A DNA stretch of 64,000 bases from Flavobacteriales bacterium (GTDB taxonomy: Bacteria > Bacteroidota > Bacteroidia > Flavobacteriales_C > GCA-002722245), in assembly GCA_038154685.1 (NCBI GenBank), contig JAYPYW010000001.1:36761-100760 (forward strand), read 5' to 3'. The translations under genes were made by a program, and so were the position numbers. Below, piece after piece: positions 5,988 through 54,452 of the stretch (its first letter is position 1; each line of letters begins with the position of its first letter). The notes beneath the pieces were generated by a model. The model had not been told where the DNA came from. It searched no databases and saw only the letters and a program-made list of their open reading frames with translations.

Positions 5988-6043
5988 AAGGAAAAACCAA
6001 TTGGTTTAATATAAGTTCGATATGAATTTATTTGTTTTCAAGA

Positions 6044-7159: not shown

Positions 7160-7161
7160 AT

Positions 7162-8466: not shown

Positions 8467-9465
8467 TTATTTAGTGATTGCTTCAATTAGTTTTTGAAAA
8501 TGCTTTTCCACCACTTCAAAATCGCTGGATCCAATTTCATATTTACCATACCAAATGAATTCGTAACTTTTAATGGCTTCCTTAAAATCAGCAAAGAAAG
8601 ATTGACCTTGAACTTCAATTTGGTAATGGTAATTCGTTTTCCTTTTTTTCCATTGGATAAAGCCTTTGTCGGATAATTCCTTGATCACCCAAACAAAATA
8701 AAGTCGTGTTGCACTTCGGAAATCATTATTTGATTTTGCAGCTAATATTTTCTTCTCCAATTCAGACAATTGTACCGCTTCAGGGTTCATGTCCTGGTCG
8801 TATAATATTTTATGGCCTTCTCCCTCAATTGGAGTTTTTGCAAATAACATATACCCAGCAAAACCAAGGATTCCGGCTATTAGAATAATTAAGAGTAATT
8901 TGAAAAAACTACCATTAAGGTTAGCATTAGACTGTTCATTGTACTTTTTTTCTTGTCGAGGATCACTTTTGCTTTTATCCTCTTTCCTTTTTAACCTACT
9001 TTTTTCAATAGCAGCTCGTCTGTTTTCATCCCTTTTGTATGAATTCCGTCTTTTAAATGCCTTTCTTTCGTACCTTCTTGAATCTGATTGAATACCATCA
9101 TTCGAATTTTTTTGCCCGCTTCCTCTATGATATTCTCTGGTGGTTATTGTTCCCGAAATGGAATCATATTCCCAAATAACATAAGTATCCCCCTTTTCAA
9201 CCCCATAACCTAATCCAAACTCGGAACTATCTCCCTCCAGGCGCTTTTGCTCCATTTCTTCTATTAAATCAACTTCTTTTTTAAGGCGTTCATATTCATC
9301 ATTTTTGAACGTCTTTTTCTCAACCACTTCATTATCCTCATTTAGGAAAAGAGGTAATTCTTCCTCTCCCTTTAAAAACAAAGAAGTGAACAAAAAGACG
9401 GCTATTGATATGAACCTAATAATCTCCCTCATCAGCTTGTTCGAAAAGATTATTTTTTGACCCAA
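8467..9465 (-). CDS. Membrane-anchored protein, DUF4129-like C-terminal domain, with charged coiled-coil middle region
   Basis: N-terminal hydrophobic segment and a mid TM helix (FFKLLLIILIAGILGFAGYMLF). A K/R/E-rich segment of about 80 aa. The C-terminal about 120 aa is taken as DUF4129 from its position in the cluster. Start is adjacent to the stop of the downstream gene. Confidence 0.45.
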   Translation of the reverse strand: MGQKIIFSNKLMREIIRFISIAVFLFTSLFLKGEEELPLFLNEDNEVVEKKTFKNDEYERLKKEVDLIEEMEQKRLEGDSSEFGLGYGVEKGDTYVIWEYDSISGTITTREYHRGSGQKNSNDGIQSDSRRYERKAFKRRNSYKRDENRRAAIEKSRLKRKEDKSKSDPRQEKKYNEQSNANLNGSFFKLLLIILIAGILGFAGYMLFAKTPIEGEGHKILYDQDMNPEAVQLSELEKKILAAKSNNDFRSATRLYFVWVIKELSDKGFIQWKKRKTNYHYQIEVQGQSFFADFKEAIKSYEFIWYGKYEIGSSDFEVVEKHFQKLIEAITK

Positions 9466-11317
9466 AATCCTTTAATCTCGAGTAAAGAGATTTAGCTTGA
9501 ATTCTTTCTCTAATGGAATGAAATTGAATAATCAAACCAACAACCACAAAGGATACAATTAAAGAGAAGAAGGCATAATACAATGCAAAGTTTAACGAGT
9601 TAGCTAAAGCTGAGATGTCATCAACAAATGGTTTAACATGATCCAAAATAAACTCTGATAAGAAATCAATATTAAAAGTAGCATTAACGCCAAACACCTG
9701 CGAAAAAAGATAACCCACAACAAAAACAATTAACGGGATTACCATTTGTAATAGGAACATTCCTACGGATCCAAACCATGATTTAAACACCAAGTTAAGG
9801 CCTCCCTTTAAGTTAGAAGTGTGTTTTTCATCCTCATAAAATCCAGCGTAGGAAAATTGGAATATGAATGGAACCAATAAGATTCCAAAAAATATCATGA
9901 ATGATTTAGGCCACAACTGAACCAAAAGAACGAATAATATTGTTGGCCAAAGTTTTAAAACCCCAAAAGCACTAAATTTCAAATACTCGATAATTCTAAA
10001 TTCTTGTTGTTTTCTGTATAAATAAACCGCATAATAAACGGCTAAGAATAAAGGAATCACCAATCCCAAAGATGCAAAATAATGAAACCCTGTAGCACCT
10101 TCTCCTCCCAAAACTTCTTTGATATTCACCCACCAATAAAGCTCCTGGTTATAACTTTCGTGATTAAAAAAATGGAGCGCTGGAATTAAAAGCATCAAAG
10201 GAAAACAAAAAAGCATCCAACCCTTAAAAAAATTACTAAACGATTGCCTATAAAGGTTAAGTGAATCGTTAAAAATCTCTCCAACCTCTCTTACTTTTTC
10301 TAATGCAATAGTTTTGTTTTTAACGTGTGGAATATCATCGTTAAAAACAAAATGACCTGGTTTAATTTTAGTGCGATAAAGGTAAATGGGATACGCCACG
10401 AAAAAAAAACAAATAAATGCTAAAGAACCCAAAACTATGATATACTTAAAAGCCATTGGCATTCCCGTATACCTAGTTACGCTCCCTTCGATAAACCCCG
10501 AAAAGATTAAAATGAAAACACAACTTAACGCAATTTTAAAACTTCTTTTTGCTGATATTCTTAATGATTGTAATCGGGTATATGTTCCAGGAAACAACAA
10601 ACCTCCTCCTAGGACTAACCCTGCTCCTCCCGCAATAATGATAGTTGCTATTTCCAAAACCCCATGAATCCAAATGATCCACATAGCCTCTGATAAAACT
10701 CCTTTGTGGTAGAGGTAATAATGGAAGGTCCCCAACATAATTCCGTTATGTACCATTATAATTACAGGAGGAACTCCAGCTGCAATTCCGGTAATATAAG
10801 TCCGGGATGCAACCATGGTATTATTGTAAGTAATATTAAAGCTCGACCATGCTGAATTACCATGCTGATGATAAACAGCCATTGGATCTCCATTGGCAAT
10901 ATTCTCATCTGTCATTGAAATATATCTTTCCCCCATAATTTGAGTCGCGTAATCGATATCATTAGCAGTAGATACAATTCCAACCATCATGGAGCTCATA
11001 AAAATGAAAAGTGCAAGTACCATAGCTTTCCAGCTTCTTGCAAACTCCACTGGTAAACCATGCGTCCAAAAATTAATAAACTTTTTTATCCTAACCTTTC
11101 GGTTACGGTTAACTTTTAGAAATACTAACTGGGAAAGGTAATTTAGGTAAACTCTAACTGATCTTTTTGCATAAAAAGTCCTCGAATAACTCAAGTCATC
11201 AGTGATTTCCACAAACAAATCTGTCAGTTTATCTGGATCAGCATTTTCATTTTGCTGCATCTGCTCAAACTTCTTCCAGCTTTTCTTTTTTTGTTTTATA
11301 AAAGTGGTTTCCCTCAA
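9416..11317 (-). CDS. Polytopic membrane protein, SpoIIM-like (DUF95) N-terminal half plus about 300-aa additional multi-TM C-terminal domain
   Basis: Residues about 90-330 resemble 'stage II sporulation protein M'/DUF95 (GxxxGxxxG-rich helices, RYTGM motif). 633 aa is about twice the usual size. The 3' end overlaps the next gene by 50 nt. Confidence 0.6.
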   Translation of the reverse strand: MRETTFIKQKKKSWKKFEQMQQNENADPDKLTDLFVEITDDLSYSRTFYAKRSVRVYLNYLSQLVFLKVNRNRKVRIKKFINFWTHGLPVEFARSWKAMVLALFIFMSSMMVGIVSTANDIDYATQIMGERYISMTDENIANGDPMAVYHQHGNSAWSSFNITYNNTMVASRTYITGIAAGVPPVIIMVHNGIMLGTFHYYLYHKGVLSEAMWIIWIHGVLEIATIIIAGGAGLVLGGGLLFPGTYTRLQSLRISAKRSFKIALSCVFILIFSGFIEGSVTRYTGMPMAFKYIIVLGSLAFICFFFVAYPIYLYRTKIKPGHFVFNDDIPHVKNKTIALEKVREVGEIFNDSLNLYRQSFSNFFKGWMLFCFPLMLLIPALHFFNHESYNQELYWWVNIKEVLGGEGATGFHYFASLGLVIPLFLAVYYAVYLYRKQQEFRIIEYLKFSAFGVLKLWPTILFVLLVQLWPKSFMIFFGILLVPFIFQFSYAGFYEDEKHTSNLKGGLNLVFKSWFGSVGMFLLQMVIPLIVFVVGYLFSQVFGVNATFNIDFLSEFILDHVKPFVDDISALANSLNFALYYAFFSLIVSFVVVGLIIQFHSIRERIQAKSLYSRLKDFGSKNNLFEQADEGDY

Positions 11318-11402
11318 TCCAATTTAATTAAGGGTTAAAAATCTTGTTTATCCATCGGAATGCAAAATTATTTGTATTATTTATTCTTAATTTGGCACCT
11401 AA

Positions 11403-12149
11403 ATGCGAACAATCAGTATAAATACCACTCAAAACGTAGCTATCGATTATGAATTAGCTGGTATTATGGAAAGAATCCTTGCTTTCCTGCTGGACACGGT
11501 AATTGTTGTTGCATACATAGTGATTGTTTCTACGTTCTCACTTTTAGGAGGTTTAATCAGCTTTGATGATGGAGGAATTGGCTCTTTCATTGTTTCGGTA
11601 ATATTCATTTTCCCAGTTTTTATTGCTTATCACTTATTTTGTGAAGCCTTATGGAACGGACAATCAATTGGGAAAAAGGCATTAGGAATTAAAGTAGTTA
11701 AATGTAATGGTCAGCAAATGGACATGGGCGATTACGGAAAAAGATGGATGTTTAGACTTTTAGATATCCTTTTATCTGCGGGCTCTGTTGCTGTACTAAC
11801 CATTTTAAGTAATGACTATAATCAAAGATTAGGAGATATTGTTGGAGATACATGTGTTGTAAAAACCCGACCAACAAATCAGATTTCTATTAAGGATATT
11901 CTTAAAATAAAATCGCAAGAAAATTACGAACCCAAATACGAAGGAGTTGTGCGGTTTACAGAAGAAGATATGTTGTTACTAAAAAACACACTCGATCGTG
12001 CAAAATCTACTCCTAATGATCACTACAGAAAACTACTTGCTGAACTTACAGAGAAAATTTGCAAGGAGTTAGAAATCACAAAAATCCCTAAAAAGAGAAC
12101 AGCTTTTCTTAAAACTATTTTGAACGATTACATTGTTCTTACTAGATAA
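11403..12149 (+). CDS. RDD family membrane protein
   Basis: R..D..D pattern in MERILAFLLDTVIVVAYIV...GKKALGIKVV, with three TM helices. Divergently transcribed from the MoxR cluster. Confidence 0.75.
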   Translation: MRTISINTTQNVAIDYELAGIMERILAFLLDTVIVVAYIVIVSTFSLLGGLISFDDGGIGSFIVSVIFIFPVFIAYHLFCEALWNGQSIGKKALGIKVVKCNGQQMDMGDYGKRWMFRLLDILLSAGSVAVLTILSNDYNQRLGDIVGDTCVVKTRPTNQISIKDILKIKSQENYEPKYEGVVRFTEEDMLLLKNTLDRAKSTPNDHYRKLLAELTEKICKELEITKIPKKRTAFLKTILNDYIVLTR

Positions 12150-31890: not shown

Positions 31891-34800
31891 TTGTTTTTTT
31901 CTAATAGTATACGCACCTTTGCCAATATGCGTGGTTTGAAGTATGTCTTACTATTATTTGTCCTTCTCTGTTTTTCGCCAGCGAAAGCTACAGATATAGA
32001 TTTACTCAAATGTGAGCAGTTCACTATTGATGATGGGCTTCCTCAAAGTTTTATTGAGAAGGTTTTCCAGGACGATAAAGGTTTTCTTTGGATTGCGACT
32101 CAAGATGGAATATCAAAATTTAATGGGTATCAATTCGAAAACTTCTTTTCAAACCCGTTTGATACAAGTACTATTGCTAGTAATTATGTGATTAATATCA
32201 ATAACTGGAATGGTGATTCGGTGTTATTCACTACTAGTATTGGACTTTCTATTTTCGATCCTGCTTCGAAAACATTTTCTAACAATGCCATTAGTTTAGA
32301 GCATAATGAAGTTGGAAATATTTCATCTTCTGTTATGCTATCTAAAGACTCCATATTTATTGGTGGAGGAAAAGGGCTATTCCAATTTGAATCCCTAAAA
32401 AACGGATATGATCTTAATCTTTTGGTTAAAAGAAATATTTCAAACACTGTATTTTTTAATCAAAAACTAACCTATAGCTCCGAAAACAAGATTTACCAGA
32501 TTATAAACGGTGAAGAAAAATTAATCCAAACATTTGATTCAAACATTCATGCTTTATTTGTTTCGAGGAATAGTTTATATGTTTCGCTTCAAAATGACTT
32601 TTTCAAACTTAAAAACAACTACGAACCAGACACAAGCTTTTGGGTTGATCACCGGGTAAACGATTTTATTATTGAAGATGGAGTTTATTGGCTTGCAACT
32701 CAAAATAATGGTGTTGTTGTTTGTGATCAGAACGTTTCGAATTCAGCCCTAAAACACCACAGCATAACTTTTTTAAGTAAAAGAATAAGCTCAATATACA
32801 AGGATAATTTTGGAGTTATTTGGATTGGGACCAACAAGGGATTAAATAAGATTGATCCTTCCAAAAAAGAGTTTTTGCAATACAAAGCATCCGCTTATCA
32901 CCCAGCATCAACCGACAATTGTTGGTCTTTCTTTGAAAACGATTCACTTTTCTTTTCTGGTTATGATAATGGTTTACAAATCAAAAAGAAAGGCTCTTCC
33001 GAATCAAAATGGATTGAATTCGATGGATTAATTCTTGATATCAACGCTGTTGATGAAAAAACGATCCTTGGAACTTCTTCTGGAGTTTATGAACTAAAAA
33101 TTGAAAATGATTCCATTTTTATTGGAGATACAAATCTCATCGATCTTGGAATAAACGGTAAACAAGATATTGTTTTCAAGTTCAAAAAATTTAAAAACAA
33201 ATTACTTGTCGGAAGTAACAACTACCTTTCTATATATGATGAAAATCTAACCCTTGTGAATAGATGGAATATTAAGGGTGTTCGAGATTTTACAATTTTT
33301 AATAACCAAATATACTTTACTGCATCTCCAACAGGAATTTACCAGCTTTACAATATTGAGGATTCAGAACTCACTAACTTTAAAAAAATAAACCTTCCAG
33401 AAGTTGAGCATTTACTGGGTTTATCGATCGCTAGTGGTAATGATCATATTTGGTTAGGTTTATATGGTGGAGGGTTAATTAAATACGATTACAAAAAGAA
33501 GAGTACTCAGCATTTCTCTACCCAAAATGGATTACCCAATAATACCATTTACTCCATTATTAATCACAAAAATTCCCTCTGGTTAAGTACGAATGGTGGT
33601 TTATCTAAACTAGACTTGAAAACAGAGGAATTTCAAAACTTTAATAATGCAGACGGAGTTCAAAGTTTAGAATTTAACTCTGGCGCAGGATTCAAAGGTA
33701 AAAATGGTAATATTTACTTCGGGGGTATTGATGGTTATAACATTGTTAATCCTAGGGTGGAAAACAGGAACTCATTCCCACCGAAAGTATACATCTCATC
33801 ATTCATGTACAAAGGGGAAAACTTATTACAAGTTGATGACAACAACAGTAACTATGATAAAGTATCCAAAACAATTACAATTCCCCACAGGAAGAATAGC
33901 TTTAAAATATTTGTGGATGCATTGCACTACTCATCACCAAATGACAATATTTTTAAAACAAAACTGGAAGGTTGGCAAAACGAATGGGTAATTAGTAAAG
34001 GAAAACCTGTTTTCCAATTTAGCAATCTAAAAGACGGAGAGTACTTTTTTGTTGTAAACGCAGCGAATTCCGATGGTGTATGGAGTTATAATGAGCAAAG
34101 GATAAAAATAATTATCAAACCCCCATTCTACTTAACTTGGTGGTTCATATCGGGTACTTCAGTAATTGTGATTGGTTTACTTGCTTTCTTAATTTATTCA
34201 AGAATAAACAGATCAAAATTCCAACGTGAAATATTAGAGCGTAAAGTAAGAGACCGCACTAGAGAAGTTGAAAATCAAAAGAAAAAACTAGAAGAAAAGA
34301 ACAAGGAACTAGAATACGAAAAAAACAAGGAAGAAGAAGTCCTTTTAAATGTTCTTCCTAGAGAAACGGCAAAAGAACTAGTATCCACTGGAAAATCTAC
34401 TCCCAAGAGTTACAAGATGGCAACAGTAATGTTCGCCGACTTTAAAAACTTCACCAAAATCACCGAAAATCTTGGTCCAAAAGAGTTAGTTGCAGAGTTG
34501 GATGATTCGTTTGCAAAGTTTGATGATATAGTTGGAAAACTAAACATCGAGAAAATCAAAACTTCCGGTGATGCTTACATGTGTGTTGGAGGAGTTCCTA
34601 TTAGAAACCAAACCAATCCTGTTGATTGTGTTTTAGCGGCTTTCCAATTCCAAAAGTATATGCACCAAAAACGTGAAATTAGGGAAGGAACTGGAAAACC
34701 TCAATGGCATTTAAGAATTGGAATGCATACCGGAGCTTTAGTTGCTGGAGTAGTAGGTAAAAAGAAATTCCTATATGATGTTTGGGGAGATACTGTAAAC

Positions 34801-35643
34801 ACTGCTGCACGAATGGAAACAAGTGCAGATGAAGGTAAGATCAACGTTTCTGGGACCACCTACGAATACATTAAAGATTACTTTGATTGTGAGTATAGAG
34901 GTAAATTACCTGTAAAAAATAAGGGCGCCATCGATATGTATTACGTAAACAGAATTAAGGCAGGTTTATGTAAAGATGAAGAAGGTCAAACACCGAATAG
35001 GAAATTCTTTGAACTACTCAACTTCAAGGTTTATACTCAGCAAAATTTCCATAACGTTCGAGATTACTTCCTAGACTTATTAGAGCAAAACGAGTTTGTT
35101 TCTAAACTCAAATACCATGGTCCCCACCATACACTAGATGTAATGGAAGCTGCCGAAAGAATTGGTCGTGCAGAAGGATTGGGAGAAGAAGAGCTAATGT
35201 TGGTTAAAGTCGCTGCCTTATTCCACGATAGTGGCTTCCTTAATAAATACCAAAATAACGAGCCTGAAGGTGCTAAATTGGCAAAGAGGGAACTTCCTCG
35301 TTATGGATTTACGGATGCTCAGGTTGAAATTGTAGAAGGAATGATTTTAGCTACTAAAATCCCTCAAGAGCCTAAAAATCATCTCGAGGAAATCCTTTGT
35401 GATGCAGATTTAGATTACTTAGGTAGAGACAAGGAAGAGTTTGATAAAATCAGTTCTTCACTTGCTCAGGAATTAATTGATATGAAGATTCTTAAATCCC
35501 TTGATGCCTGGGATCCAATACAGGTTAAATTTCTTGAGGCTCATCAATACTTCACCAAAACTTGTATTGAAACCCGAAGGCCAGGCAAAATTGAAAGATT
35601 GAGAGAAATTAGAGACCGACTGCAAGGACCTAATGAGGAGTAA
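31891..35643 (+). CDS. Membrane sensor protein: beta-propeller/Y_Y_Y periplasmic domain, TM, coiled coil, class III adenylate cyclase domain, C-terminal HD phosphohydrolase domain
   Basis: N-terminal hydrophobic segment. W.GT repeats and a Y_Y_Y region. TM LTWWFISGTSVIVIGLLAFLIYS, then a K/E coiled coil. Cyclase motifs VMFADFKNFT, KIKTSGDAYMCVGG, YDVWGDTVNTAARME, where the K/D specificity residues indicate ATP. HD motif HHTLDV...LFHDSG...DADLDYLG. Confidence 0.8.
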   Translation: MFFSNSIRTFANMRGLKYVLLLFVLLCFSPAKATDIDLLKCEQFTIDDGLPQSFIEKVFQDDKGFLWIATQDGISKFNGYQFENFFSNPFDTSTIASNYVININNWNGDSVLFTTSIGLSIFDPASKTFSNNAISLEHNEVGNISSSVMLSKDSIFIGGGKGLFQFESLKNGYDLNLLVKRNISNTVFFNQKLTYSSENKIYQIINGEEKLIQTFDSNIHALFVSRNSLYVSLQNDFFKLKNNYEPDTSFWVDHRVNDFIIEDGVYWLATQNNGVVVCDQNVSNSALKHHSITFLSKRISSIYKDNFGVIWIGTNKGLNKIDPSKKEFLQYKASAYHPASTDNCWSFFENDSLFFSGYDNGLQIKKKGSSESKWIEFDGLILDINAVDEKTILGTSSGVYELKIENDSIFIGDTNLIDLGINGKQDIVFKFKKFKNKLLVGSNNYLSIYDENLTLVNRWNIKGVRDFTIFNNQIYFTASPTGIYQLYNIEDSELTNFKKINLPEVEHLLGLSIASGNDHIWLGLYGGGLIKYDYKKKSTQHFSTQNGLPNNTIYSIINHKNSLWLSTNGGLSKLDLKTEEFQNFNNADGVQSLEFNSGAGFKGKNGNIYFGGIDGYNIVNPRVENRNSFPPKVYISSFMYKGENLLQVDDNNSNYDKVSKTITIPHRKNSFKIFVDALHYSSPNDNIFKTKLEGWQNEWVISKGKPVFQFSNLKDGEYFFVVNAANSDGVWSYNEQRIKIIIKPPFYLTWWFISGTSVIVIGLLAFLIYSRINRSKFQREILERKVRDRTREVENQKKKLEEKNKELEYEKNKEEEVLLNVLPRETAKELVSTGKSTPKSYKMATVMFADFKNFTKITENLGPKELVAELDDSFAKFDDIVGKLNIEKIKTSGDAYMCVGGVPIRNQTNPVDCVLAAFQFQKYMHQKREIREGTGKPQWHLRIGMHTGALVAGVVGKKKFLYDVWGDTVNTAARMETSADEGKINVSGTTYEYIKDYFDCEYRGKLPVKNKGAIDMYYVNRIKAGLCKDEEGQTPNRKFFELLNFKVYTQQNFHNVRDYFLDLLEQNEFVSKLKYHGPHHTLDVMEAAERIGRAEGLGEEELMLVKVAALFHDSGFLNKYQNNEPEGAKLAKRELPRYGFTDAQVEIVEGMILATKIPQEPKNHLEEILCDADLDYLGRDKEEFDKISSSLAQELIDMKILKSLDAWDPIQVKFLEAHQYFTKTCIETRRPGKIERLREIRDRLQGPNEE

Positions 35644-41634: not shown

Positions 41635-42165
41635 ATGAAAAAGATAATCGCTTTCTCAGGAAGTAATAGTAAAAATTCTATTAATCAAAAATTAGCTATG
41701 GTAGCGTCTAAAATGGTTACTAAAGCTGAAGTTGAAATAATAAATCTTAGCGATTATTCTGCTCCCATTTATGGTATTGACGAAGAAACAGAGAATGGAT
41801 TTCCGCAAAGTATGATAGATTTAAAAAATAAGCTGGCAGAAGCGGATGGTTATATTATTTCAACTCCTGAGCATAATGGCTCAATTCCTGCTTTTTTCAA
41901 AAATGCAATAGATTGGCTTTCCAGACAAAGTAGATCTGTTTTAAACGACCAGCCAACTGTTTTCCTAAGCACATCACCAGGTGCCAGAGGAGGTAAAACT
42001 GCCTTAGCTCATTTGGTAAGTATCATGCCTTACCAGGGAGCAAAAGTCATTGGATCACACTCAGTGGGAAGTTTCAATGATAAAATGCTTAATGAAGACC
42101 TAATTGAAGGTGAAGATAAAACAGCAATCCTTCAATTAATTAAAGATTTAGAAAGTCAGTTATAA
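41635..42165 (+). CDS. NAD(P)H-dependent FMN reductase (flavodoxin-like fold)
   Basis: MKKIIAFSGSNSKNSINQKLA...ISTPEHNGSIPA pattern of the FMN_red family. Confidence 0.8.
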   Translation: MKKIIAFSGSNSKNSINQKLAMVASKMVTKAEVEIINLSDYSAPIYGIDEETENGFPQSMIDLKNKLAEADGYIISTPEHNGSIPAFFKNAIDWLSRQSRSVLNDQPTVFLSTSPGARGGKTALAHLVSIMPYQGAKVIGSHSVGSFNDKMLNEDLIEGEDKTAILQLIKDLESQL

Positions 42166-43089
42166 AGCTGATTCAACTAATTGTTTTAGTTCTTCTTGCG
42201 ATTGAAATTGGGCTATATTATCGTAATTCGATTTCAATTGATTTTCATCTCTGCAATGGAACCAAAGTTTTGGGTTATGCCCACTTTTTAATTGATGATG
42301 AATATCCTTAAGAAAACTACTTAGGTCCTGTATTTTAGGATAAACTGTAAAACTGGAAACATAAATTACATCTTCTAACTCGTTAAAAAGAGCTAAATTG
42401 TCTGTAGGGGTAGATTGTCCCAAGTACACAGTTTTTGCTCCTCTAATTCTTAAATAAAGATTAACGTACAACAGTCCTATTTCATGCAATTCGTAATCGG
42501 GTAAAAACAGTACAAAAACAGGTCCTTCACTCTTATAATTCTTCGGAACTTGAGCAGTACTTAAAATAAGCTTCTGTTTTACAACATTGGCTACAAAATG
42601 CTCGTGAGCCGGTGTTATTTTAGAGCTCTGCCAAAGGAGACCTACCTTATTTAAAATCGGAAAAATCACCTCCGTATAACCCAATTCAAGACCTAATCTT
42701 TCAATTATTTTATCGATTATTTTATCGATGGCCTCTTCATCAAAAGTAAGAATAGCCAGTTTTAATTGATCATTGAAATATAAATGCGACTTATCTCCAA
42801 TAATTTTTTCATTAACTAAAGTCTCTAACTGAGATTTTGGAAGACTGGCAATTTTGGAAATCTTATAACCGCTCTCCGTCAGGTAAGCTAAGTTCAACAA
42901 TCGTTTTAAAGATTCTGTTGAATATATCCTTTGATTTCCTTCCGAACGTTCAGGTTCTAACGCAGAATATCTTTGTTCCCAAACTCTTATTGTATGAGCC
43001 TTTATTTCAGATAAGTTCTCCAAATCTTTTATGGAGAATGTATTTTGTATCAATTTAGTCGCCAACTTCACTAGTATATGTGCAAGCAA
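42160..43089 (-). CDS. MerR-family regulator with C-terminal cobalamin-binding domain (CarH/LitR-like, putative light/B12-responsive)
   Basis: N-terminal MerR HTH (FSIKDLENLSEIKAHTIRVWEQRY). W-x9-EH motif (WQSSKITPAHEH) and B12 lower-ligand motif E-x-H-x-x-G (ELHEIG) within a Rossmann-like domain. Confidence 0.65.
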   Translation of the reverse strand: MLAHILVKLATKLIQNTFSIKDLENLSEIKAHTIRVWEQRYSALEPERSEGNQRIYSTESLKRLLNLAYLTESGYKISKIASLPKSQLETLVNEKIIGDKSHLYFNDQLKLAILTFDEEAIDKIIDKIIERLGLELGYTEVIFPILNKVGLLWQSSKITPAHEHFVANVVKQKLILSTAQVPKNYKSEGPVFVLFLPDYELHEIGLLYVNLYLRIRGAKTVYLGQSTPTDNLALFNELEDVIYVSSFTVYPKIQDLSSFLKDIHHQLKSGHNPKLWFHCRDENQLKSNYDNIAQFQSQEELKQLVESAL

Positions 43090-43117: not shown

Positions 43118-44161
43118 CTATTCTATAGCTTCCCACCATCGATTCGAATCAAAAGTTTCATTTATCAGTTTTTGCTGACCTAATTTAGGACAAACCCAAT
43201 AAAGGCCTTTTTCTTCAGCACTTTTAACGAAATCAATAACGGGTGTTTTCCATTTATGAGGAGCCAATGAAAAACCAGCCCAGTGAACTGGCATAATTCT
43301 TTTTACCCCAGCATCTAAAGCTGCCTGAACGCTTTCATCTGGAAACATGTGAATTTGACGCCACAATTCATGGTATTGACCACATTCCATAAATCCAAAA
43401 TCAAAAGGGCCTAGCTTCTCTCCTACCAATTTAAAATGATCGCCATAACCTCCATCTCCACTGAAGTAGATGTTTTCACTCGAACTCTTTATAGTCCAAC
43501 CACCCCAAAGGGATTTATTCCTGTCTAAAATTCCTCTTCCTGAAAAATGACGGGTAGGTGTAAATGTGATTTCTATACCCTCTAATTCAGATTTATCCCA
43601 CCAATCAAACTCTTTTACTTTCTCAGGGTAGATTCCCCAACTTTCAAAATGCCGTTTTGTACCTTTTGCTACCCAATACTTTTTTACTTTTGATTTTAGC
43701 TTATTTATGCTTGCTAAATCTAGATGATCATAGTGATCGTGACTCAACAAAAGCAAATCAATTTTGGGTAAATTATCAATTAAATCTAAAGTCCCTTTTG
43801 AAAACCTCTTAGTTTTAAATGGCGCTATTGGAGAAGCATCAGGACCTAACATTGGATCGATTACAATAATCTTTCCTTCAACATTAAGTAATACAACTGA
43901 ATGCCCAAACCAAATAAACTTCGCAGAGGAGGAGGATGATAAAAAAGAATCTTTGTCAAATTCCTCTATCGTAATCGGATTCATAGGTGATCTCCCTTTT
44001 GTTTTAAAAAAATTCTCGTAAATCATACCGGGAAAATCTTTTAGTTTAAAGTCCATTTTAGTTTCCACTAAATTCTCAAAACTCTTTCCTTTCCAATTTG
44101 ACGATTGTGCTAATTCGCGCTTTAATTGTTTAGTTATTTTCCCTCCAAATTGCTTTTTCAT
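43118..44161 (-). CDS. Metallo-beta-lactamase-fold hydrolase, NAPE-PLD-like (soluble paralog)
   Basis: FIWFGHSVVLL...IDLLLLSHDHYDHLD, then downstream His/Asp ligands. The pattern parallels N-acyl-phosphatidylethanolamine phospholipase D. Confidence 0.75.
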   Translation of the reverse strand: MKKQFGGKITKQLKRELAQSSNWKGKSFENLVETKMDFKLKDFPGMIYENFFKTKGRSPMNPITIEEFDKDSFLSSSSSAKFIWFGHSVVLLNVEGKIIVIDPMLGPDASPIAPFKTKRFSKGTLDLIDNLPKIDLLLLSHDHYDHLDLASINKLKSKVKKYWVAKGTKRHFESWGIYPEKVKEFDWWDKSELEGIEITFTPTRHFSGRGILDRNKSLWGGWTIKSSSENIYFSGDGGYGDHFKLVGEKLGPFDFGFMECGQYHELWRQIHMFPDESVQAALDAGVKRIMPVHWAGFSLAPHKWKTPVIDFVKSAEEKGLYWVCPKLGQQKLINETFDSNRWWEAIE

Positions 44162-45300
44162 TCTGCTAGCTTATCCCACCAAGGGTTATAATTTAAGTTT
44201 ATAGCATCTAATTTAATCGTCTCCCCAATTTGCGGTGTAATAATATTTACTCCAAGTGAATCTGCAGCCTTTTTTATCCTTACAGGTGGCTCAAACCAAT
44301 CATGTAAGGAAAGTGTAAAAGCTCCCCAATGAATTGGTATTCCAAATTTTGCTTTCAAATCTTTTACTGCCAAGGCTGACTCTTCTGGCTGCATATGAAT
44401 TTGCTTCCAGTTTTTATTGTACTGCCCACATTCAACCATTGCTATATCAAACGGGCCGTATTTATCCCCTATAGCTGCAAAGTGATCATCATATCCTCCA
44501 TCCCCACTAAAGAATATCTTCTGATTTTCTCCTTTAATAACCCATGAACCCCACAATGTTGAATTATGATTTAACAAACCTCTACCTGAAAAGTGTCGCG
44601 TTGGAGTAAGTGCAAAATTTAATCCATCAATCGAATCCTCATCCCACCAATTATATTCATGAATTTTATTTTCCGGGATACCCCAAGATTTAAAATGAGC
44701 TCCAACTCCGTATGGCAAAATAAATTGTTTAACCTTAGGATGAATTTGTTCTATCGTTTCATAATCCAAATGATCATAATGATCGTGAGAAATAAAAACA
44801 AAATCAATTGCTGGCAATTCTTCAATCTCAAGTGGAATATGTTTATTATATCTACTTCTCGAAAGCCATTTGATTGGAGAAGGAGCTTCGCCAAGCATAG
44901 GATCTAGCAAAATGTTTTTATTATCTAATTGAAGTAGAAACGCTGAATGGCCAAACCAAATTAGTTTGGGCTCTGAGCGAGTCTTTTCTAAAACCAAAGA
45001 ATCTTGATCTAAGAATGGTACTTCGAACAAAGGATCTCGATTAGGATTTTCTTTATAATACTCCTTTAGCGTGCTCCAAAACACATCCCATGAAAACCCG
45101 CGAGAGGTATTGTGATAGTTTTTAAATTTCCCATCTGAATAATGACCAGATTTTTCAAATTTCAAAACATCCTCTTCAGTAGGATCACCTCCAAACTCAG
45201 GGCTTACATTAACAAAAACAATCCCAATAAAAATTACTGATAGCAGCAAAAGGAAAAACCACTTAAGCAACTTCTTAAACCATTTCCACAGCAACTTCAT
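44158..45300 (-). CDS. Metallo-beta-lactamase-fold hydrolase, NAPE-PLD-like (N-terminal TM anchor paralog)
   Basis: N-terminal TM WFFLLLLSVIFIGIVFVNV, then LIWFGHSAFLL...IDFVFISHDHYDHLD. 4-nt overlap with the downstream paralog. Confidence 0.75.
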   Translation of the reverse strand: MKLLWKWFKKLLKWFFLLLLSVIFIGIVFVNVSPEFGGDPTEEDVLKFEKSGHYSDGKFKNYHNTSRGFSWDVFWSTLKEYYKENPNRDPLFEVPFLDQDSLVLEKTRSEPKLIWFGHSAFLLQLDNKNILLDPMLGEAPSPIKWLSRSRYNKHIPLEIEELPAIDFVFISHDHYDHLDYETIEQIHPKVKQFILPYGVGAHFKSWGIPENKIHEYNWWDEDSIDGLNFALTPTRHFSGRGLLNHNSTLWGSWVIKGENQKIFFSGDGGYDDHFAAIGDKYGPFDIAMVECGQYNKNWKQIHMQPEESALAVKDLKAKFGIPIHWGAFTLSLHDWFEPPVRIKKAADSLGVNIITPQIGETIKLDAINLNYNPWWDKLAE

Positions 45301-48520: not shown

Positions 48521-48773
48521 TTAAATCTAAACAAGTTTAGCCCTGCAACCTCAAAACACATCCGGTTGTAAATCAACAACTTGCCTTGTTTTAGTAATGA
48601 TTTTACATTAATTTAACGCCAAGAAATTAAGGCGGATCTTTCAAAACCTTGGCTTTTTAGAATTATTACCATTGGAAATCCGAATTGAAAAATAATATCC
48701 TTCCGCTCATAAGTATGGGGGTACTTAGAAGTTATGGTTGGATGTAAACTTGGTTCACAGAACTTAAGGTAGG

Positions 48774-48800
48774 AAAAAGGGATGCTTTGCATCCCTTTTG
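48774..48800 (-). terminator. Rho-independent terminator after the AAA+ ATPase gene (reverse strand; A-run on plus side makes it potentially bidirectional)
   Basis: AAAAA-GGGATGC-TTT-GCATCCC-TTTTGTTTT. Confidence 0.65.
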
Positions 48801-48802
48801 TT

Positions 48803-50266
48803 TTATAGTCCTCCTAAAACTGAACTGAAGTAGTCTTGGAAGGATGTACTTCTTTTTAATTGTTTTCTATCTAACAATGAGAACTCAGCTAAAGCAGTAA
48901 GCAAAAATTCTTTTAAAACTGCTTGTTCTGATTTATCCGAAGTTAACTTGTTAGTTTTTTCTTCTAATCCAGAAACAGTATCTAAACCAGACTCATATTC
49001 AGCTTGAGGCATTTCATTTAGCAAGTCTAATTTCTGACCACTCTCAAACCAACTTGTAATTGCCATGTATTGCTCTTTTAAATCTTGGGGAGCACGCTTT
49101 TGACTTAAGTGATGAATGTTTTGGAAGTATTCAGGAGCAATAGATCTAATTGCTTGTCCAATTAATCTTCTGGCCACATTTGGAGCGCCTTCTTGCTCTC
49201 CTTCATAAACCATTTCAATCTTACCAATGATTGCTGGAATAGTAGCCGTTAAATCACCTATTCTTGCAATTCCTTTTTCATCTCCATTAATCAGCATTCT
49301 ACGCTCAACAGCACTTAAAACATTTTCGTAAGCAGATATTGGTAAACGAGCTGAAACACCACTCTTAGCATCAATAAACTCACTCTCTCGAGCTTCTATT
49401 GCTATTTGTTCTATCAGTTTTTCAATCACTTCAGGAACAACAATATTCTCTTGTCCTCTTTGTTTTGAAACTTCTTGCTTGGTAATGATTCTTCCTATTT
49501 CATTTGATTCAGGATAATGCGTGTAAATCTGACTCTGAATTCTGTCTTTTAAAGGAGTAATAATAGATCCCCTATTTGTATAATCCTCAGGGTTAGAAGT
49601 AAATATAAACTGAACATCCATTGGGATTCTTAATTTATAACCTCTGATTTGTAAATCACCTTCTTGCAATAGATTAAACAAGGCAACCTGAATTCGAGGT
49701 TGTAAATCTGGCAATTCATTGATCACAAATAAACCTCTGTTGGACCTTGGAATTATCCCGTAATTAATTACTTCTTCGCTAGAAAGGCTCAACTTTAGGT
49801 TAGCCGCCTTAATTGGATCTACATCTCCAATTAAATCTGCAATATTTACATCAGGAGTGGCTAATTTTTCAGCGTACCTGCCTGATCTATGCAACCAATC
49901 TATAGGTGTTTCGTCACCCATTTCAGCCACCTTACCCTTTGAAGCTGTGGTAATTGGATGTAAAGGATCTTCATTTAACTCTGACCCTTCAATTATAGGA
50001 ATATATTCATCTAATAATTGAATTAATAACCTAGCCATTTTAGACTTTCCCTGACCTCTTAAACCTAAAAAGTTAATACTATGACCAGCTAAAACAGCCC
50101 TTTCCAATTCAGGAATAACAGTATCGTCATATCCAATTATGTTTTCAAAAACCTTTTCACCAGATCGAAGCTTTTGAGCTAAATTATCTCTTAACTCCTC
50201 CGTTACGGTTTTAAATTGGTATCCTGCAGCTTTTAAAGCTCCTAATGTTTTGATTGAAGTATCCAT
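48803..50266 (-). CDS. AAA+ ATPase, Mg-chelatase ChlI/BchI-like
   Basis: Walker A GLRGQGKSKMARLL. The segment GLFVINELPDLQPRIQVALFNLLQEGDLQIRGYKLRIPMDVQFIFTSNPEDY...PLKDRIQ parallels the ChlI sensor-1/arginine-finger region. Start overlaps the upstream VWA gene stop (TAATG). Confidence 0.6.
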   Translation of the reverse strand: MDTSIKTLGALKAAGYQFKTVTEELRDNLAQKLRSGEKVFENIIGYDDTVIPELERAVLAGHSINFLGLRGQGKSKMARLLIQLLDEYIPIIEGSELNEDPLHPITTASKGKVAEMGDETPIDWLHRSGRYAEKLATPDVNIADLIGDVDPIKAANLKLSLSSEEVINYGIIPRSNRGLFVINELPDLQPRIQVALFNLLQEGDLQIRGYKLRIPMDVQFIFTSNPEDYTNRGSIITPLKDRIQSQIYTHYPESNEIGRIITKQEVSKQRGQENIVVPEVIEKLIEQIAIEARESEFIDAKSGVSARLPISAYENVLSAVERRMLINGDEKGIARIGDLTATIPAIIGKIEMVYEGEQEGAPNVARRLIGQAIRSIAPEYFQNIHHLSQKRAPQDLKEQYMAITSWFESGQKLDLLNEMPQAEYESGLDTVSGLEEKTNKLTSDKSEQAVLKEFLLTALAEFSLLDRKQLKRSTSFQDYFSSVLGGL

Positions 50267-51360
50267 TATCTTCTCTTTTTATTTCTTTCGTAATCGGCAA
50301 AAATAAAGTTGCCTAATCCCTCTAAGCTGGCGTAAAATGCCTTTCCTCTATTAGTCTCGGTGAATTGCTCCACAAATTCCTGTAAATAAGGATCTTGAGC
50401 AATCATGAATGTGGTAACAGGAATTTTCAGCTTCCTACATTGAGCCGCCAAATTGATCGTTTTCCTTAACACTTTTGGGTCCTGCCCCATACTGTTTTTA
50501 TAATACGTTCCATCCGCATTTTTTAGGCATGTTGGCTTCCCATCAGTAATCATGAAAATCTGTTTATTTCCAGCTTTCCGCTTCCTTAATAAGTCCATTG
50601 CCAATTCCAAACCAGCTACGGTATTTGTATGATAAGGCCCAACCTGTAAATAGGGTAAATCCTTAATTTGAATTTGCCAGGCGTCATTTCCAAAAACAAT
50701 CACATCTAAATTATCCTTCGGATATTTAGTCCTGATTAATTCAGCTAAAGCCATAGCCACTTTTTTTGCGGGCGTAATTCGGTCTTCACCGTAAAGTATC
50801 ATCGAATGGGAGATATCAATCATCAAAACGGTACTCATGCTGCTTTTATGTTCATTTTCATAAACAACAAGGTCTTCATTTTGAAGATCAAAATCATCAA
50901 TACCACCCCTTATTTGGGCATTTTTTATACTCGTTTGAAAATCGATTTGCTGCAAAGAATCTCCATATTGATATGGCCTTTGATCGGGCGTAAACTCATC
51001 CCCTTTTCCAATCTTACTGGAACGATGATTTCCACCGGTATCCTTCTTTAGTTTCCCAAAAATTTGATCAAGTGATCTCTTTCGGATTAATTGCTCGGCT
51101 TTACCTGTTAATTTCTGACTTTTCCCTTGAGTGGAACTAGATAAATATCCGTTTTTTTCAAGGTCGTTTCTAAAATCTTCCAGCGTATAATCAGGAGTTG
51201 TTAATTTATGCTCCTGATCAATCATTTCCATCCATCTGAAGGTTTCTTCAACATCCCCAGAAGTATGCACCATAATCTCTAAAAAAAGCTCTAACAACTT
51301 CTCAAATGGTGAACGATTATCTTCTGGTTCTATGTATTTTTCAAATCGATGTCCAAGCAT
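50266..51360 (-). CDS. von Willebrand factor A (VWA/MIDAS) domain protein, partner of the ChlI-like ATPase
   Basis: MIDAS motif in VLMIDISHSM (DxSxS), downstream T and D ligands (FMITDGKPT), 364 aa. Confidence 0.7.
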   Translation of the reverse strand: MLGHRFEKYIEPEDNRSPFEKLLELFLEIMVHTSGDVEETFRWMEMIDQEHKLTTPDYTLEDFRNDLEKNGYLSSSTQGKSQKLTGKAEQLIRKRSLDQIFGKLKKDTGGNHRSSKIGKGDEFTPDQRPYQYGDSLQQIDFQTSIKNAQIRGGIDDFDLQNEDLVVYENEHKSSMSTVLMIDISHSMILYGEDRITPAKKVAMALAELIRTKYPKDNLDVIVFGNDAWQIQIKDLPYLQVGPYHTNTVAGLELAMDLLRKRKAGNKQIFMITDGKPTCLKNADGTYYKNSMGQDPKVLRKTINLAAQCRKLKIPVTTFMIAQDPYLQEFVEQFTETNRGKAFYASLEGLGNFIFADYERNKKRR

Positions 51361-51516
51361 AGTTTTAAGTTAACGAATTAACTCACTTGGATGCTGGATT
51401 TAACTTAATTTATGTTGATATGATGTTTGAGTGACATGATGGCTTTAAATACTCAAACGTACAATACTATCTGATAAAATAACACCGTACAATTAAGTTA
51501 GGAAACAGGATAACAG

Positions 51517-52293
51517 TTATGTTAAAGCGTAAGCATTTATTTCATTATTAATACCAGACCATAAATCAAACCTAGCATTTAATGATAATTTTGCTACCTC
51601 TTCTGATTCTTCCCATTTCTGATCACTTTCACCGCATAACTCTGAAATCATTTTCAAAGCAAGAGGACCGTGATCATCGCCATCCAACTCAATATGTCGC
51701 TCTAAATAATACCTAAGCTTTTTGTATTGATTGTTTTCAGGATCAACTGATTTGACAATCGATAAAAACATCTCTGGAATAACATCCTCTCTTCCAAATG
51801 TAAATGAAGAAGCTACTTTATGAGCAGAATTGCTATTGATAATCTTAAAAGTATTAAGAACAAACGCTTTAGTTTGATCAGCTATTTTTAAGTTTTTTAA
51901 AGCATCTTCAATAGATCCACCCTTTTGCAAATTATAAACAAAAGTTACAATTGGTTGCGTATCTGCCCCTATTTCATTCATCGCATCTAAATACATTTCA
52001 AAATGACTTCTTGGATTTCCATCAATGTCTAAGTCAGACTCTTCCCCAAGAACGATTTCGTTTATAAATCTTGATGTCAATGAATTATCAACGGGTAGCC
52101 ATGGAATTTCAACACAAGTCAATCTCTTTTGCAAACATTTTAAAAGACTCATAAAATCCCAAACCGCAAAGACATGATTTTTCATAAAAACCTTAATGTC
52201 TTCAATAGATTTTAGATTATTATAGAAATCATGCTCAGAAAGCTTTTTCTGATAAACTTCAATAGAACTCTCTAACTTTTGAATCTTATCCAT
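51517..52293 (-). CDS. Hypothetical protein, DUF3050-like
   Basis: HVFAVWDFMSLLKCLQ motif, which I recall from DUF3050 proteins (heme-oxygenase-like fold). Not verified. Confidence 0.4.
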   Translation of the reverse strand: MDKIQKLESSIEVYQKKLSEHDFYNNLKSIEDIKVFMKNHVFAVWDFMSLLKCLQKRLTCVEIPWLPVDNSLTSRFINEIVLGEESDLDIDGNPRSHFEMYLDAMNEIGADTQPIVTFVYNLQKGGSIEDALKNLKIADQTKAFVLNTFKIINSNSAHKVASSFTFGREDVIPEMFLSIVKSVDPENNQYKKLRYYLERHIELDGDDHGPLALKMISELCGESDQKWEESEEVAKLSLNARFDLWSGINNEINAYALT

Positions 52294-52331
52294 AGTGCAA
52301 AAATAGACACTTTTGATACTACAAACAACTA

Positions 52332-52991
52332 CTAAAACTTCGCAAACAAAAACACATTAAATTGGTCTCTATTGATGGCTGACATGAATTGGTTCATGTA
52401 CCCCATTTCCATTTTTAGTTTTGGATTAATTTGGTAACCTAATCCTCCGTATAATCTATTTCTGTCGAATGCTGTTTCCTTTTCAACATCCATAAATAAC
52501 TCTGTGTAACTAGAAAGGTAAACGGCTCCTGGATCCAATGTTGTTTTGTTTAATGGCACTCTTAAATTTAGGAAATACCTCAAACGCATTTTGAAATTAT
52601 CTTCGATAAATCTTTGCTCAAATCTGTAACGATGCCCCCAGAAAAATCTTCCTGCAGATTGCTTGGAAACAAATTGCTGATAAATCCTATGCTCATTTAC
52701 TCTGAACTTTTCTCCGAAAGCATCATAATTTTCGCTTCCAATGTATCCGTAACCTAAAAGCAAATTATTATTTCCTTCGGTTAAATTATAACCAATTCCT
52801 GTTCTTAATAACAATTGCTCCAAATCACCAATCGCGTTATAATTACGATATTGAACTTCGTGGTGTAGATTAAACTTATCGTTTAACTTTTTACTACCAA
52901 TGTAAATTAACCAATTTCCAAAATCACTGTCCTGAGCCGAAGCTCCAAAAGTGAAAACTGATAATAACGTTAATGCTAATGACTTTCTCAT
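52332..52991 (-). CDS. Secreted/outer-membrane protein, DUF2490-like
   Basis: Signal peptide MRKSLALTLLSVFTFGASA. Alternating hydrophobic pattern suggesting a beta-barrel and a C-terminal Phe. Family guess from memory. Confidence 0.4.
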   Translation of the reverse strand: MRKSLALTLLSVFTFGASAQDSDFGNWLIYIGSKKLNDKFNLHHEVQYRNYNAIGDLEQLLLRTGIGYNLTEGNNNLLLGYGYIGSENYDAFGEKFRVNEHRIYQQFVSKQSAGRFFWGHRYRFEQRFIEDNFKMRLRYFLNLRVPLNKTTLDPGAVYLSSYTELFMDVEKETAFDRNRLYGGLGYQINPKLKMEMGYMNQFMSAINRDQFNVFLFAKF

Positions 52992-53623
52992 AGTAAATTC
53001 AATTTATTTAAGTTCTGCTTTAATTGTTCGGCGTATTTCTTCACCATTGCTTTATCAACCTTAGGCTCTTCTTCTACCTCTAATAAAACTGGTAATTGAG
53101 TGTAGTTTAGGATATATTCTTTACCTGACTCGTTTTTTGGTCCATTAAAAACCCATCCTAACATTGATATTTCATATTGTTTTAATATCTCGTAAGTCAT
53201 TAAAGAGTGATTAATGCTTCCTAAATAATTTCTAGATACTAAAACAACCGGCACGTTTAACTTTTTAATCAAATTTGTTAAGTGTTCCTTTTCGTTTAAA
53301 GGAACTAACAAACCTCCTGCCCCCTCAATAACCAAAGGGTTTTCAGTTTCCGGTAATATAATTTTATCTAAATCTATTTTTATATTATCTAACTCTGCTG
53401 AAGTATGCGGCGAAAGCGGATTATTTAGTCTATAAACCTCATTATGAAATGTCCCACTGGTGTCCGTCCACTCTTGAACTTTATGGGTGTCTGTATAATG
53501 TAAATCTCCAGATTGAATTGGCTTTAGGTAATCCGACTGAAAAGCCTCCACGAAGATGGCTGAAATAACCGTTTTACCTACTTCTGTCCCAATCCCAGTT
53601 ATAAATATCTGCTTGTTTTTCAT
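52988..53623 (-). CDS. bioD: Dethiobiotin synthetase
   Basis: P-loop GIGTEVGKTVIS and overall BioD pattern; 211 aa. Confidence 0.85.
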   Translation of the reverse strand: MKNKQIFITGIGTEVGKTVISAIFVEAFQSDYLKPIQSGDLHYTDTHKVQEWTDTSGTFHNEVYRLNNPLSPHTSAELDNIKIDLDKIILPETENPLVIEGAGGLLVPLNEKEHLTNLIKKLNVPVVLVSRNYLGSINHSLMTYEILKQYEISMLGWVFNGPKNESGKEYILNYTQLPVLLEVEEEPKVDKAMVKKYAEQLKQNLNKLNLL

Positions 53624-53627
53624 TTTC

Positions 53628-54452
53628 TTATGGATTACAAATCTGACAATATTGTGGATCTAAATATTTTTGCTGGTGAACTGCTTCAACAATCTCCTCC
53701 TCTCCACAATGATCACAAACTTTACCATGATTTTTAGGATAGTTTGAAGGGAAGTTACAAACCTCACAAGGCAATCCAGGAATTGATTTTTTAACTGTAA
53801 AACCGGCTTTACCGCAGTTTGGACAATTTGATTGAAGCGCCGCTACCAAATTCTCTGCAGCCTTGGCAATATTTTTCATCCTTAAAGGATTATTCATGGC
53901 CCTTACATCTGTTTCTAACGTAATCTTCCCATAATTCTGTAAGGTCTGACTAACCTCTTCTTGCGACGAAACTCCTTTTAAAATAACCTTTTGATCTTCA
54001 TATGATTTTACGATGAACTTTGCTGGTTCGAAACGATTAAAAAACCTTTCCAGCTCTTCTGCTGAAGAAATTTCCTGACTAATAAAATTGGTTTCGGTTG
54101 TTCCATTTTTCGCATAAACGAACTCGCTGTTGGATTTATCAACAAACACCAACCATTCCTCATTATAAGGCAAGTAAACACTATCTGGATGATTTCCGAA
54201 TGAACCTTCACTAGCTATAGCATAATCGTATTCAGGATTTAATTTCAATCCAGACTTACATTTATCTAAAACTGTTTCCTTAGATGATTTTTCTCGCTTA
54301 ATCTCTCCTGAGAACATCCCGAACTGGTCGGTATCAAAACCTGAAACAACATCAATGTTAGCGTTAAAAGCTGCTTTAAAAACGGGAGCTATTGCCTCCT
54401 CTTTTCCATGCTTTGTAACTAATAATATGTTCTTACCAGAAAGATTAATCAT
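53628..54452 (-). CDS. Hypothetical protein with C-terminal tandem CxxC zinc-ribbon motifs
   Basis: CPNCGKAGF...CEVCNF...CDHCGEE...CQICNP gives four CxxC pairs in the last 70 aa. No alpha/beta-hydrolase motif, so not BioH/BioG. Confidence 0.4.
   Translation of the reverse strand: MINLSGKNILLVTKHGKEEAIAPVFKAAFNANIDVVSGFDTDQFGMFSGEIKREKSSKETVLDKCKSGLKLNPEYDYAIASEGSFGNHPDSVYLPYNEEWLVFVDKSNSEFVYAKNGTTETNFISQEISSAEELERFFNRFEPAKFIVKSYEDQKVILKGVSSQEEVSQTLQNYGKITLETDVRAMNNPLRMKNIAKAAENLVAALQSNCPNCGKAGFTVKKSIPGLPCEVCNFPSNYPKNHGKVCDHCGEEEIVEAVHQQKYLDPQYCQICNP

Follow-up and report, generated by a model that had tools for sequence, protein, structure and literature searches.

Comparison with sequence databases makes it near certain that two adjacent minus-strand genes in a 64,000-nucleotide stretch of a Flavobacteriales bacterium genome (assembly GCA_038154685.1, contig JAYPYW010000001.1, positions 36,761 to 100,760; this whole stretch is called the window, and positions are counted within it) belong to the family of Rv0958 and Rv0959 of Mycobacterium tuberculosis. 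The upstream gene encodes a protein with a VWA domain and a metal ion-dependent adhesion site (MIDAS), and the downstream gene encodes an AAA+ ATPase of the ChlI/BchI branch. The window pair has a short VWA partner and the reversed gene order, and the comparison was made through the Tsukamurella proteins that occupy the Rv0958/Rv0959 position. The two proteins may form a self-contained, chromosomally inherited AAA+/VWA machine that would remodel an unlinked client through the MIDAS protein as adaptor, a reading to which we assign a probability of about 0.5-0.6. The locus itself is ordinary, since the pair is very common in Bacteroidota and its family is already catalogued.

A conserved gene pair and its distribution

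The VWA gene (50266–51360, minus strand, 364 residues) and the ATPase gene (48803–50266, minus strand, 487 residues, the Rv0958 homologue) were taken from the list of open reading frames of the window, and both are real genes and not chance reading frames, since database homologues of the two proteins reach E = 0 and about 1e-230. They meet at a TAATG junction (50264–50268, minus strand; AGA-TAATG-GAT in context), in which the VWA stop codon TAA (50268–50266) and the ATPase start codon ATG (50266–50264) have one base in common. This confirms the overlap of stop and start codon that had been described in an earlier inspection of the letters of the window (hereafter the sequence-only reading).

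The family assignment follows from a match of the ATPase over its full length, and of the VWA protein to the C-terminal half of its counterpart, in the Tsukamurella pair. The window ATPase is 41% identical to the Tsukamurella ATPase encoded downstream of purN-purH (462 of 487 residues, E = 3e-106), with the C-terminal extension included in the alignment, and BLASTP aligned the window VWA protein with the last 305 residues of the 659-residue Tsukamurella neighbour (27% identity, E = 7e-29). The Tsukamurella gene order is purN-purH-...-ATPase-VWA, which we take to be the arrangement of Rv0956-Rv0959 in M. tuberculosis. Rv0958/Rv0959 and MSMEG_5512 of M. smegmatis resemble the window pair in both protein families, in the MIDAS and in an asparagine in the Walker B motif of the ATPase. 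In the Rv0958/Rv0959 type of Actinomycetota, however, the ATPase gene comes first and the partner is long, whereas in the window the VWA gene comes first and the partner is short. The anatomy of the pair had been described correctly in the sequence-only reading, which had missed both the homology to Rv0958/Rv0959 and the replacement of the Walker B aspartate by asparagine that marks the family.

More than 8000 homologues of the ATPase, and likewise more than 8000 of the VWA protein, were among the matches listed. The proteins of the pair are 54–70% identical over Flavobacteriales, Cytophagales, Sphingobacteriales, Chitinophagales and Saprospiraceae, and 41–45% identical to those of Actinomycetota and Thermomicrobium. 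An exhaustive search of representatives at 50% identity yielded 553 clusters below 1e-30 and 1944 below 1e-10, including members labelled Planctomycetota and Deltaproteobacteria. Outside Bacteroidota, members come from Ignavibacteria, Planctomycetota, Deltaproteobacteria, Thermomicrobia and Actinomycetota, so that at least six phyla are represented. A tblastn search against phage sequences gave no match, and the same search against plasmids gave only four, all to non-mobilizable megaplasmids or chromids (Thermomicrobium, Tsukamurella, Nonomuraea and Nocardia). Judging from these comparisons, the pair is part of a large, vertically inherited, core chromosomal family.

Linkage of the two genes was examined in a genome scan of 80 loci, all from Bacteroidota or Ignavibacteria/Melioribacteraceae, of which six had too little upstream sequence and 74 were informative. 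In 64 of the 74, a VWA gene lay upstream of the ATPase gene in the same orientation. In a set of 86 loci assembled for the comparison of neighbours, all-against-all clustering of 935 flanking open reading frames placed a VWA gene in 67 of 83 loci, while the next cluster was present in 11; apart from the VWA gene, the ATPase gene has no conserved neighbour. The spacing between the two genes was determined for the 67 loci in which both reading frames were called, with six metagenome loci pooled in this analysis: it was at most 39 nt, overlaps included, in 37 loci, between 50 and 235 nt in 23, and 500 nt or more in seven. Tight coupling as in the window is therefore common, not universal. The pair was also adjacent at two Saprospiraceae loci.

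The order of the genes changes between lineages. VWA precedes ATPase in Bacteroidota and Ignavibacteria, and ATPase precedes VWA, with the two genes adjacent, at five loci from Planctomycetota, Deltaproteobacteria, Thermomicrobium, Tsukamurella and another lineage. That the linkage persists despite the change of order argues for a functional pair. No third gene recurred in seven additional neighbourhoods from distant lineages.

Architecture and signature motifs of the two proteins

Three Pfam models were matched by the ATPase, each with a score barely above its gathering value: Mg_chelatase (24.8 bits, gathering 20.3, with no single stretch passing alone), Sigma54_activat (24.9 bits, gathering 20.2, spanning residues 169–226 only) and AAA_5 (24.0 bits, gathering 22). 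These are the ATPase models that the sequence-only reading had named for a scan, and of the models named for the partner, VWA was matched, as was VWA_2, and VWA_CoxE was not. Rankings were obtained from searches against the PDB. With the single ATPase sequence, ChlI was the first match (7.6e-5), followed by BchI (4.1e-4); with a profile of 20 family members from different phyla, the order was ChlI (7e-13), archaeal LonB (3e-11) and BchI (2.3e-9), sigma-54 activators and MCM followed with values no better than 1e-5, and MoxR proteins were absent at E ≤ 0.01. Besides the Walker motifs, the ChlI alignment takes in an insert that is specific to ChlI and follows the Walker A helix (IPVV...DP...P), as well as the NPE...R...DR segment. 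Comparison of the predicted fold likewise placed ChlI/BchI closest, with lower Z scores to MoxR proteins. The ranking of the PDB matches and the extent of the ChlI alignment support the assignment of the ATPase to the ChlI/BchI branch of AAA+ proteins and not to the MoxR class, in agreement with the sequence-only reading. Two other assignments were tried and rejected: the MoxR class, since neither AAA_3 nor AAA_lid_2 was matched by the ATPase, and an ATPase of the ComM/YifB or Lon type, since the closest similarity was to ChlI/BchI and not to ComM or Lon.

Two features separate the family from ChlI. The first is a family-specific C-terminal extension of about 160 residues, which does not align to ChlI. 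The second is an atypical Walker B motif, LFVINE (residues 179–184; 49715–49732, minus strand), which aligns to VDE of ChlI, sits on strand 178–183 of the predicted model and has Asn183 in place of the canonical aspartate. Among family sequences with a recognisable motif, this position was asparagine in 246 of 248, glutamine in one and aspartate in one, so that the Walker B asparagine is a family-defining signature. The Walker A motif GLRGQGKS (residues 68–75; 50042–50065, minus strand) agrees with the family consensus GLRGQ[AG]K[ST]; most members have alanine before the lysine (GLRGQAKT; GxxGxAK[ST]), whereas the window ATPase has the canonical glycine. Invariant or nearly so across the family are Gly68, Gly71, Gln72 and Lys74 of Walker A, Glu184, Asn225 (sensor 1, in NPEDY), Arg232 and Arg242 (ChlI-type) and Arg307 (sensor 2, in GVSAR). 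As far as the alignments allow a prediction, the catalytic motifs, namely the P-loop lysine, the Walker B glutamate, the sensor-1 asparagine, the two arginines and the sensor-2 arginine, appear to be retained, and the family-wide change of the Walker B aspartate to asparagine suggests slow or tightly gated hydrolysis.

The VWA protein matched only VWA_2 (2.8e-8) and VWA (3.4e-5) among Pfam models at E ≤ 0.01. Homologues 90–93% identical to it carry PF27098 (Rv0959_3rd) and PF13519 in precomputed annotation, as do the VWA homologues at large, and the assignment of the window protein to PF27098 is indirect, through these relatives; the BLASTP match to Tsukamurella likewise makes it a homologue of the C-terminal half of Rv0959. 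Its predicted structure consists of an N-terminal helical region (residues 1–170, from AlphaFold secondary structure; 50851–51360, minus strand) and the VWA domain (residues 175–364; 50269–50838, minus strand). In several of the loci from other phyla the partner is much longer (528–699 residues) and has extra N-terminal helical domains, for example PF27532 (Mb0984_helical), which the Bacteroidota form of about 365 residues lacks.

The MIDAS of the window protein is made up of DISHS (residues 182–186, with D182, S184 and S186 forming the DxSxS motif; 50803–50817, minus strand), HTNT (244–247) and TDG (272–274). The complete DxSxS...T...D set noted in the sequence-only reading was borne out: D182, S184, S186, T245 and D273 are all present and are invariant in alignments with sequences from Planctomycetota, Deltaproteobacteria and Ignavibacteria. 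The VWA domain is thus predicted to have an intact, metal-binding MIDAS.

A second conserved element lies in the N-terminal region. The loop of residues 104–122 (50995–51051, minus strand) is strongly conserved, although it was modelled by AlphaFold at a predicted local distance difference test (pLDDT) value below 50; the model of the whole VWA protein reached 74, probably limited by lower alignment diversity. Gly110, His112 and Gly118 of the loop, followed by Gly133 and Asp134 of a (Y/F)GD motif (132–134), are invariant across phyla. Strong conservation combined with low model confidence is the pattern that would be expected of an interaction element that takes up an ordered structure only when bound to its partner, and the loop is a candidate site for docking on the ATPase ring. 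Neither the ATPase nor the VWA protein has hydrophobic segments, and therefore both should be cytoplasmic; both are acidic to neutral.

A proposed client-remodelling machine and its alternatives

The proposed mechanism was arrived at by analogy with ChlI-ChlD, NorQ-NorD and CbbQ-CbbO. The analogy draws on the ChlI/ChlD literature (Fodje et al. 2001) as well as on the NorQ/NorD mechanism. The ATPase would presumably form a hexameric ring, as ChlI/BchI does, on which the VWA protein would dock, perhaps via loop 104–122 or via the beta-hairpin after the TDG motif. The MIDAS metal ion would capture a carboxylate of the client protein, and the nucleotide cycle of the ring would then remodel the client, for example by insertion or extraction of a metal or cofactor or by release of a bound factor. 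A precedent is NorQ/NorD, in which a VWA 'finger' enters the ring pore, client carboxylates are recognised in a MIDAS-dependent manner and a linker is remodelled (PMC9976466, PMC13036017). MoxR/VWA pairs such as NorQ/NorD, CbbQ/CbbO, RavA/ViaA and CoxD/CoxE are usually encoded beside their client, whereas the window pair is not, and its client would be encoded elsewhere in the genome. The strong conservation of the pair together with the lack of a linked client suggests a conserved cellular target. The similarity to CoxD/CoxE that had been raised as an option in the sequence-only reading did not hold, with no match of the partner to VWA_CoxE and an ATPase that is not of the MoxR/CoxD type.

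Mentions of the family in the searched literature were confined to screens, and neither an experimentally established function nor a functional study of Rv0958/Rv0959 was found there. An affinity purification-mass spectrometry screen for nucleic acid-associated proteins listed MSMEG_5512 with high confidence, but the protein showed no detectable DNA association (PMC7092591); it was also among the interactors of ClpC1 (PMC10433963). Rv0959 appeared in the searched literature only in tables of antigens and of transposon sequencing data.

Several observations weigh against a client-remodelling motor. No VWA gene lies within 6 kb of the ATPase gene in ten of the 74 informative Bacteroidota and Ignavibacteria loci (about 14%); together with three further loci that have divergent ATPases, these lack a VWA gene within 6–8 kb. 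Because of these loci and divergent members, the ATPase may work without the partner, or the partner may not be needed. Furthermore, the Walker B asparagine and the frequent GxxGxAK[ST] form of the P-loop could mean weak or no hydrolysis, and no family member has a demonstrated activity, complex or client.

Alternatively, the pair could be a nucleotide-gated switch or scaffold and not a motor. The asparagine would keep ATP bound, and the ATPase together with the VWA/MIDAS protein would be a long-lived platform on a universal machine such as RNA polymerase or the ribosome, as a bacterial counterpart of eukaryotic Rea1/midasin. There, too, an AAA+ ring works with a MIDAS domain, which holds on to a protein ligand, and the target is a large conserved machine encoded elsewhere. 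This would account for the asparagine in 246 of 248 sequences, and the high identity within Bacteroidota, the 41–45% identity to Actinomycetota and Thermomicrobium and the lack of a linked client would fit a partner that is conserved, not linked to the pair and perhaps universal. The high-confidence listing of MSMEG_5512 points in the same direction, though the protein was without detectable DNA association (PMC7092591) and the listing comes from one crosslinking screen of a species in a distant phylum. On the other side, Glu184, the sensor-1 residue, both arginines and sensor 2 are invariant, as in a hydrolysing enzyme, and genes of the ribosome or of RNA polymerase are not consistently found near the pair. 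We consider a switch or scaffold unlikely on balance, and the client-remodelling machine remains the preferred reading.

It is conceivable, though in our estimation quite improbable, that the Rv0958/Rv0959 family as a whole is an unrecognised, phylum-spanning housekeeping machine, in which a ChlI-clade ring with hydrolysis attenuated by the Walker B asparagine would use a MIDAS adaptor to reach a client that is universal and encoded away from the pair, for example RNA polymerase, the ribosome or a respiratory metalloenzyme. If this is true, the Rea1/midasin or NorQD principle would have a bacterial counterpart in this family, and the ChlI lineage would include a third functional branch, unrelated to tetrapyrroles.

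A role as the I/D motor of a tetrapyrrole (Mg- or Co-) chelatase, with the large ChlH/CobN subunit encoded elsewhere, would agree with the best sequence and fold matches of the ATPase, which are ChlI/BchI. The ATPase also has a weak match to the BchD-ChlD model (8.3e-7), and both the ATPase and the VWA protein weakly match the putative cobaltochelatase model TIGR02442 (VWA protein, 3.5e-7). The latter match extends over residues 68–278 of the VWA protein and positions 368–585 of the model and reaches into the pre-VWA linker as well as the VWA domain, so that the 'split I/D-like' appearance proposed in the sequence-only reading is real at the level of distant homology. These scores are, however, far under the equivalog cutoffs (28 versus 499 bits for BchD-ChlD and 29 versus 779 bits for TIGR02442), and no ChlI/BchI equivalog was matched by the ATPase in the NCBIfam scan. 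Compared with ChlI/BchI and ChlD/BchD, the window pair lacks ChlH/CobN, its partner lacks the AAA+ half that defines the D subunit, the Walker B motif reads NE in place of DE, and neither the asparagine nor the additional C-terminal residues of the ATPase align to ChlI. The absence of an H subunit and of tetrapyrrole genes nearby, as given in the sequence-only reading, was upheld: no ChlH/CobN was found among window reading frames of more than 1000 residues, both of which encode Reg_prop/Y_Y_Y signalling proteins, or among the clusters present in more than 11 of the 83 related loci. The family is, moreover, widespread in non-phototrophic Bacteroidota. In M. tuberculosis, a separate ChlI-ChlD fusion, Rv2850c, would presumably serve CobN, which also counts against this role. 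In a screen for B12 resistance, one transposon insertion lay 49 bp upstream of the orthologue in M. marinum and was not pursued there (PMC11237697); it favours a chelatase, but with the above differences we regard such a function as very unlikely.

The sequence-only reading had also presented the pair as an orphan of the kind found sporadically in stress or defence islands. Conflict systems are indeed known to include AAA+/VWA (MoxR-vWA) modules (PMC7159879), and the genes flanking the pair vary between genomes, as in a stress or anti-phage defence module of a variable island. The comparisons instead describe a large vertical chromosomal family, whose 54–70% identity across whole Bacteroidota classes fits vertical descent and which has homologues in five other phyla. 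PADLOC returned no match for the VWA protein and, as best match for the ATPase, a sigma-54-type AAA module at E = 0.0064 (13.7 bits), and the phage and plasmid searches gave nothing beyond the four non-mobilizable replicons mentioned above. Since the GC content is uniform at 0.33–0.37 across the window, the neighbours are housekeeping genes and no PADLOC match is significant, the pair is not considered part of a defence or stress island, and a defence function appears extremely unlikely.

Actinomycetota are not known to have sigma-54, yet the family is present there, which counts against the ATPase being a sigma-54-dependent transcriptional activator, as PGAP names it. This activator role deserves almost no credence: the Sigma54_activat score and the PGAP name on homologues speak for it, but the match is confined to the generic Walker B to sensor-1 core (residues 169–226), neither a GAFTGA nor an ESELFGH motif nor, by Pfam, a helix-turn-helix or other DNA-binding domain is present, and MSMEG_5512 had no detectable DNA association (PMC7092591).

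Annotation of the family is inconsistent, its members being named 'sigma-54-interacting regulator', 'magnesium chelatase' or 'Ca-activated chloride channel', and a corrected annotation would stop false chelatase or sigma-54 inferences in non-phototrophs. With its ChlI-type ring, MIDAS adaptor, Walker B asparagine and no linked client, the family is a well-defined target in which to look for a new client of AAA+/VWA remodelling.

Surroundings of the pair in the window

In the window, the pair is a unit of its own, with a candidate promoter, TAATG coupling and a terminator after the ATPase gene. The intergenic region 5' of the VWA gene (156 nt, 51361–51516, minus strand) contains a candidate Bacteroidota -7 element, TACGTTTG, at 51454–51461, which matches TAnnTTTG. 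This motif is depleted in the window as a whole (58 found versus 92 ± 9 expected from shuffles), which would fit selection against spurious promoters. A further copy (52298–52305) lies upstream of the DUF3050 gene. A scan with a sigma-70 model, which is ill-suited to Bacteroidota, found 23 promoter sites versus 26 expected, that is, no excess.

Directly after the ATPase stop codon, a strong GC-rich palindrome (48775–48799) that forms a hairpin and has runs of T on each strand is a likely bidirectional terminator, which would close both the pair and a convergent methyltransferase gene. Between the stop codon of the latter (48520) and this shared terminator, a gap of about 255 nt beginning at 48521 is free of open reading frames and gave nothing in an Rfam search at gathering thresholds; the whole window had no Rfam and no tRNA matches.

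Upstream of the pair, Pfam confirmed the DUF3050-like (5.5e-98) and DUF2490-like (4.7e-52) genes described in the sequence-only reading. They belong to a tightly packed run, DUF6671 - BioD-like (AAA_26) - DUF2490 - DUF3050 (51517–54452), in which the bioD-like and DUF2490 genes overlap by 4 nt. The suggestion that the DUF3050 and DUF2490 genes are partners of the pair had to be abandoned. When ten window neighbours, among them the DUF3050, DUF2490, BioD, DUF6671, methyltransferase and OmpA-like genes and two metallo-beta-lactamase-fold genes, were searched by tblastn against the 86 related loci, no co-occurrence was found, and the sole match to any flanking gene was one to an OmpA domain. Because the DUF3050 and DUF2490 genes are absent from all 86 loci and no cluster other than VWA was present in more than 11 loci, these two genes are accidental neighbours.

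The window contains two different AAA+ remodeller systems. Besides the pair, a canonical MoxR cluster is located at 4701–12149, mainly on the minus strand, and its MoxR protein (6044–7159) matches AAA_3 (2.3e-62) and AAA_lid_2 (1.1e-25) and aligns with the ATPase of the pair only at E = 0.02 by BLASTP. The cluster further comprises genes for a DUF58 protein (4701–5987), a DUF4350 protein (7162–8466), an unmatched 332-residue reading frame (8467–9465) and a 633-residue SpoIIM-like protein (9416–11317), with a divergent RDD-family gene on the plus strand (11403–12149).

Other regulatory and enzymatic genes were also observed in the window. A MerR-family regulator with a B12-binding domain, read as CarH-like (42160–43089), adjoins two tandem metallo-beta-lactamase-fold paralogues (43118–44161 and 44158–45300), whose reading frames overlap by 4 nt. 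The two Reg_prop/Y_Y_Y beta-propeller sensors have different outputs, the one at 1033–4284 (1083 residues) a SpoIIE-type phosphatase and the one at 31891–35643 (1250 residues) an adenylate/guanylate cyclase together with an HD domain.

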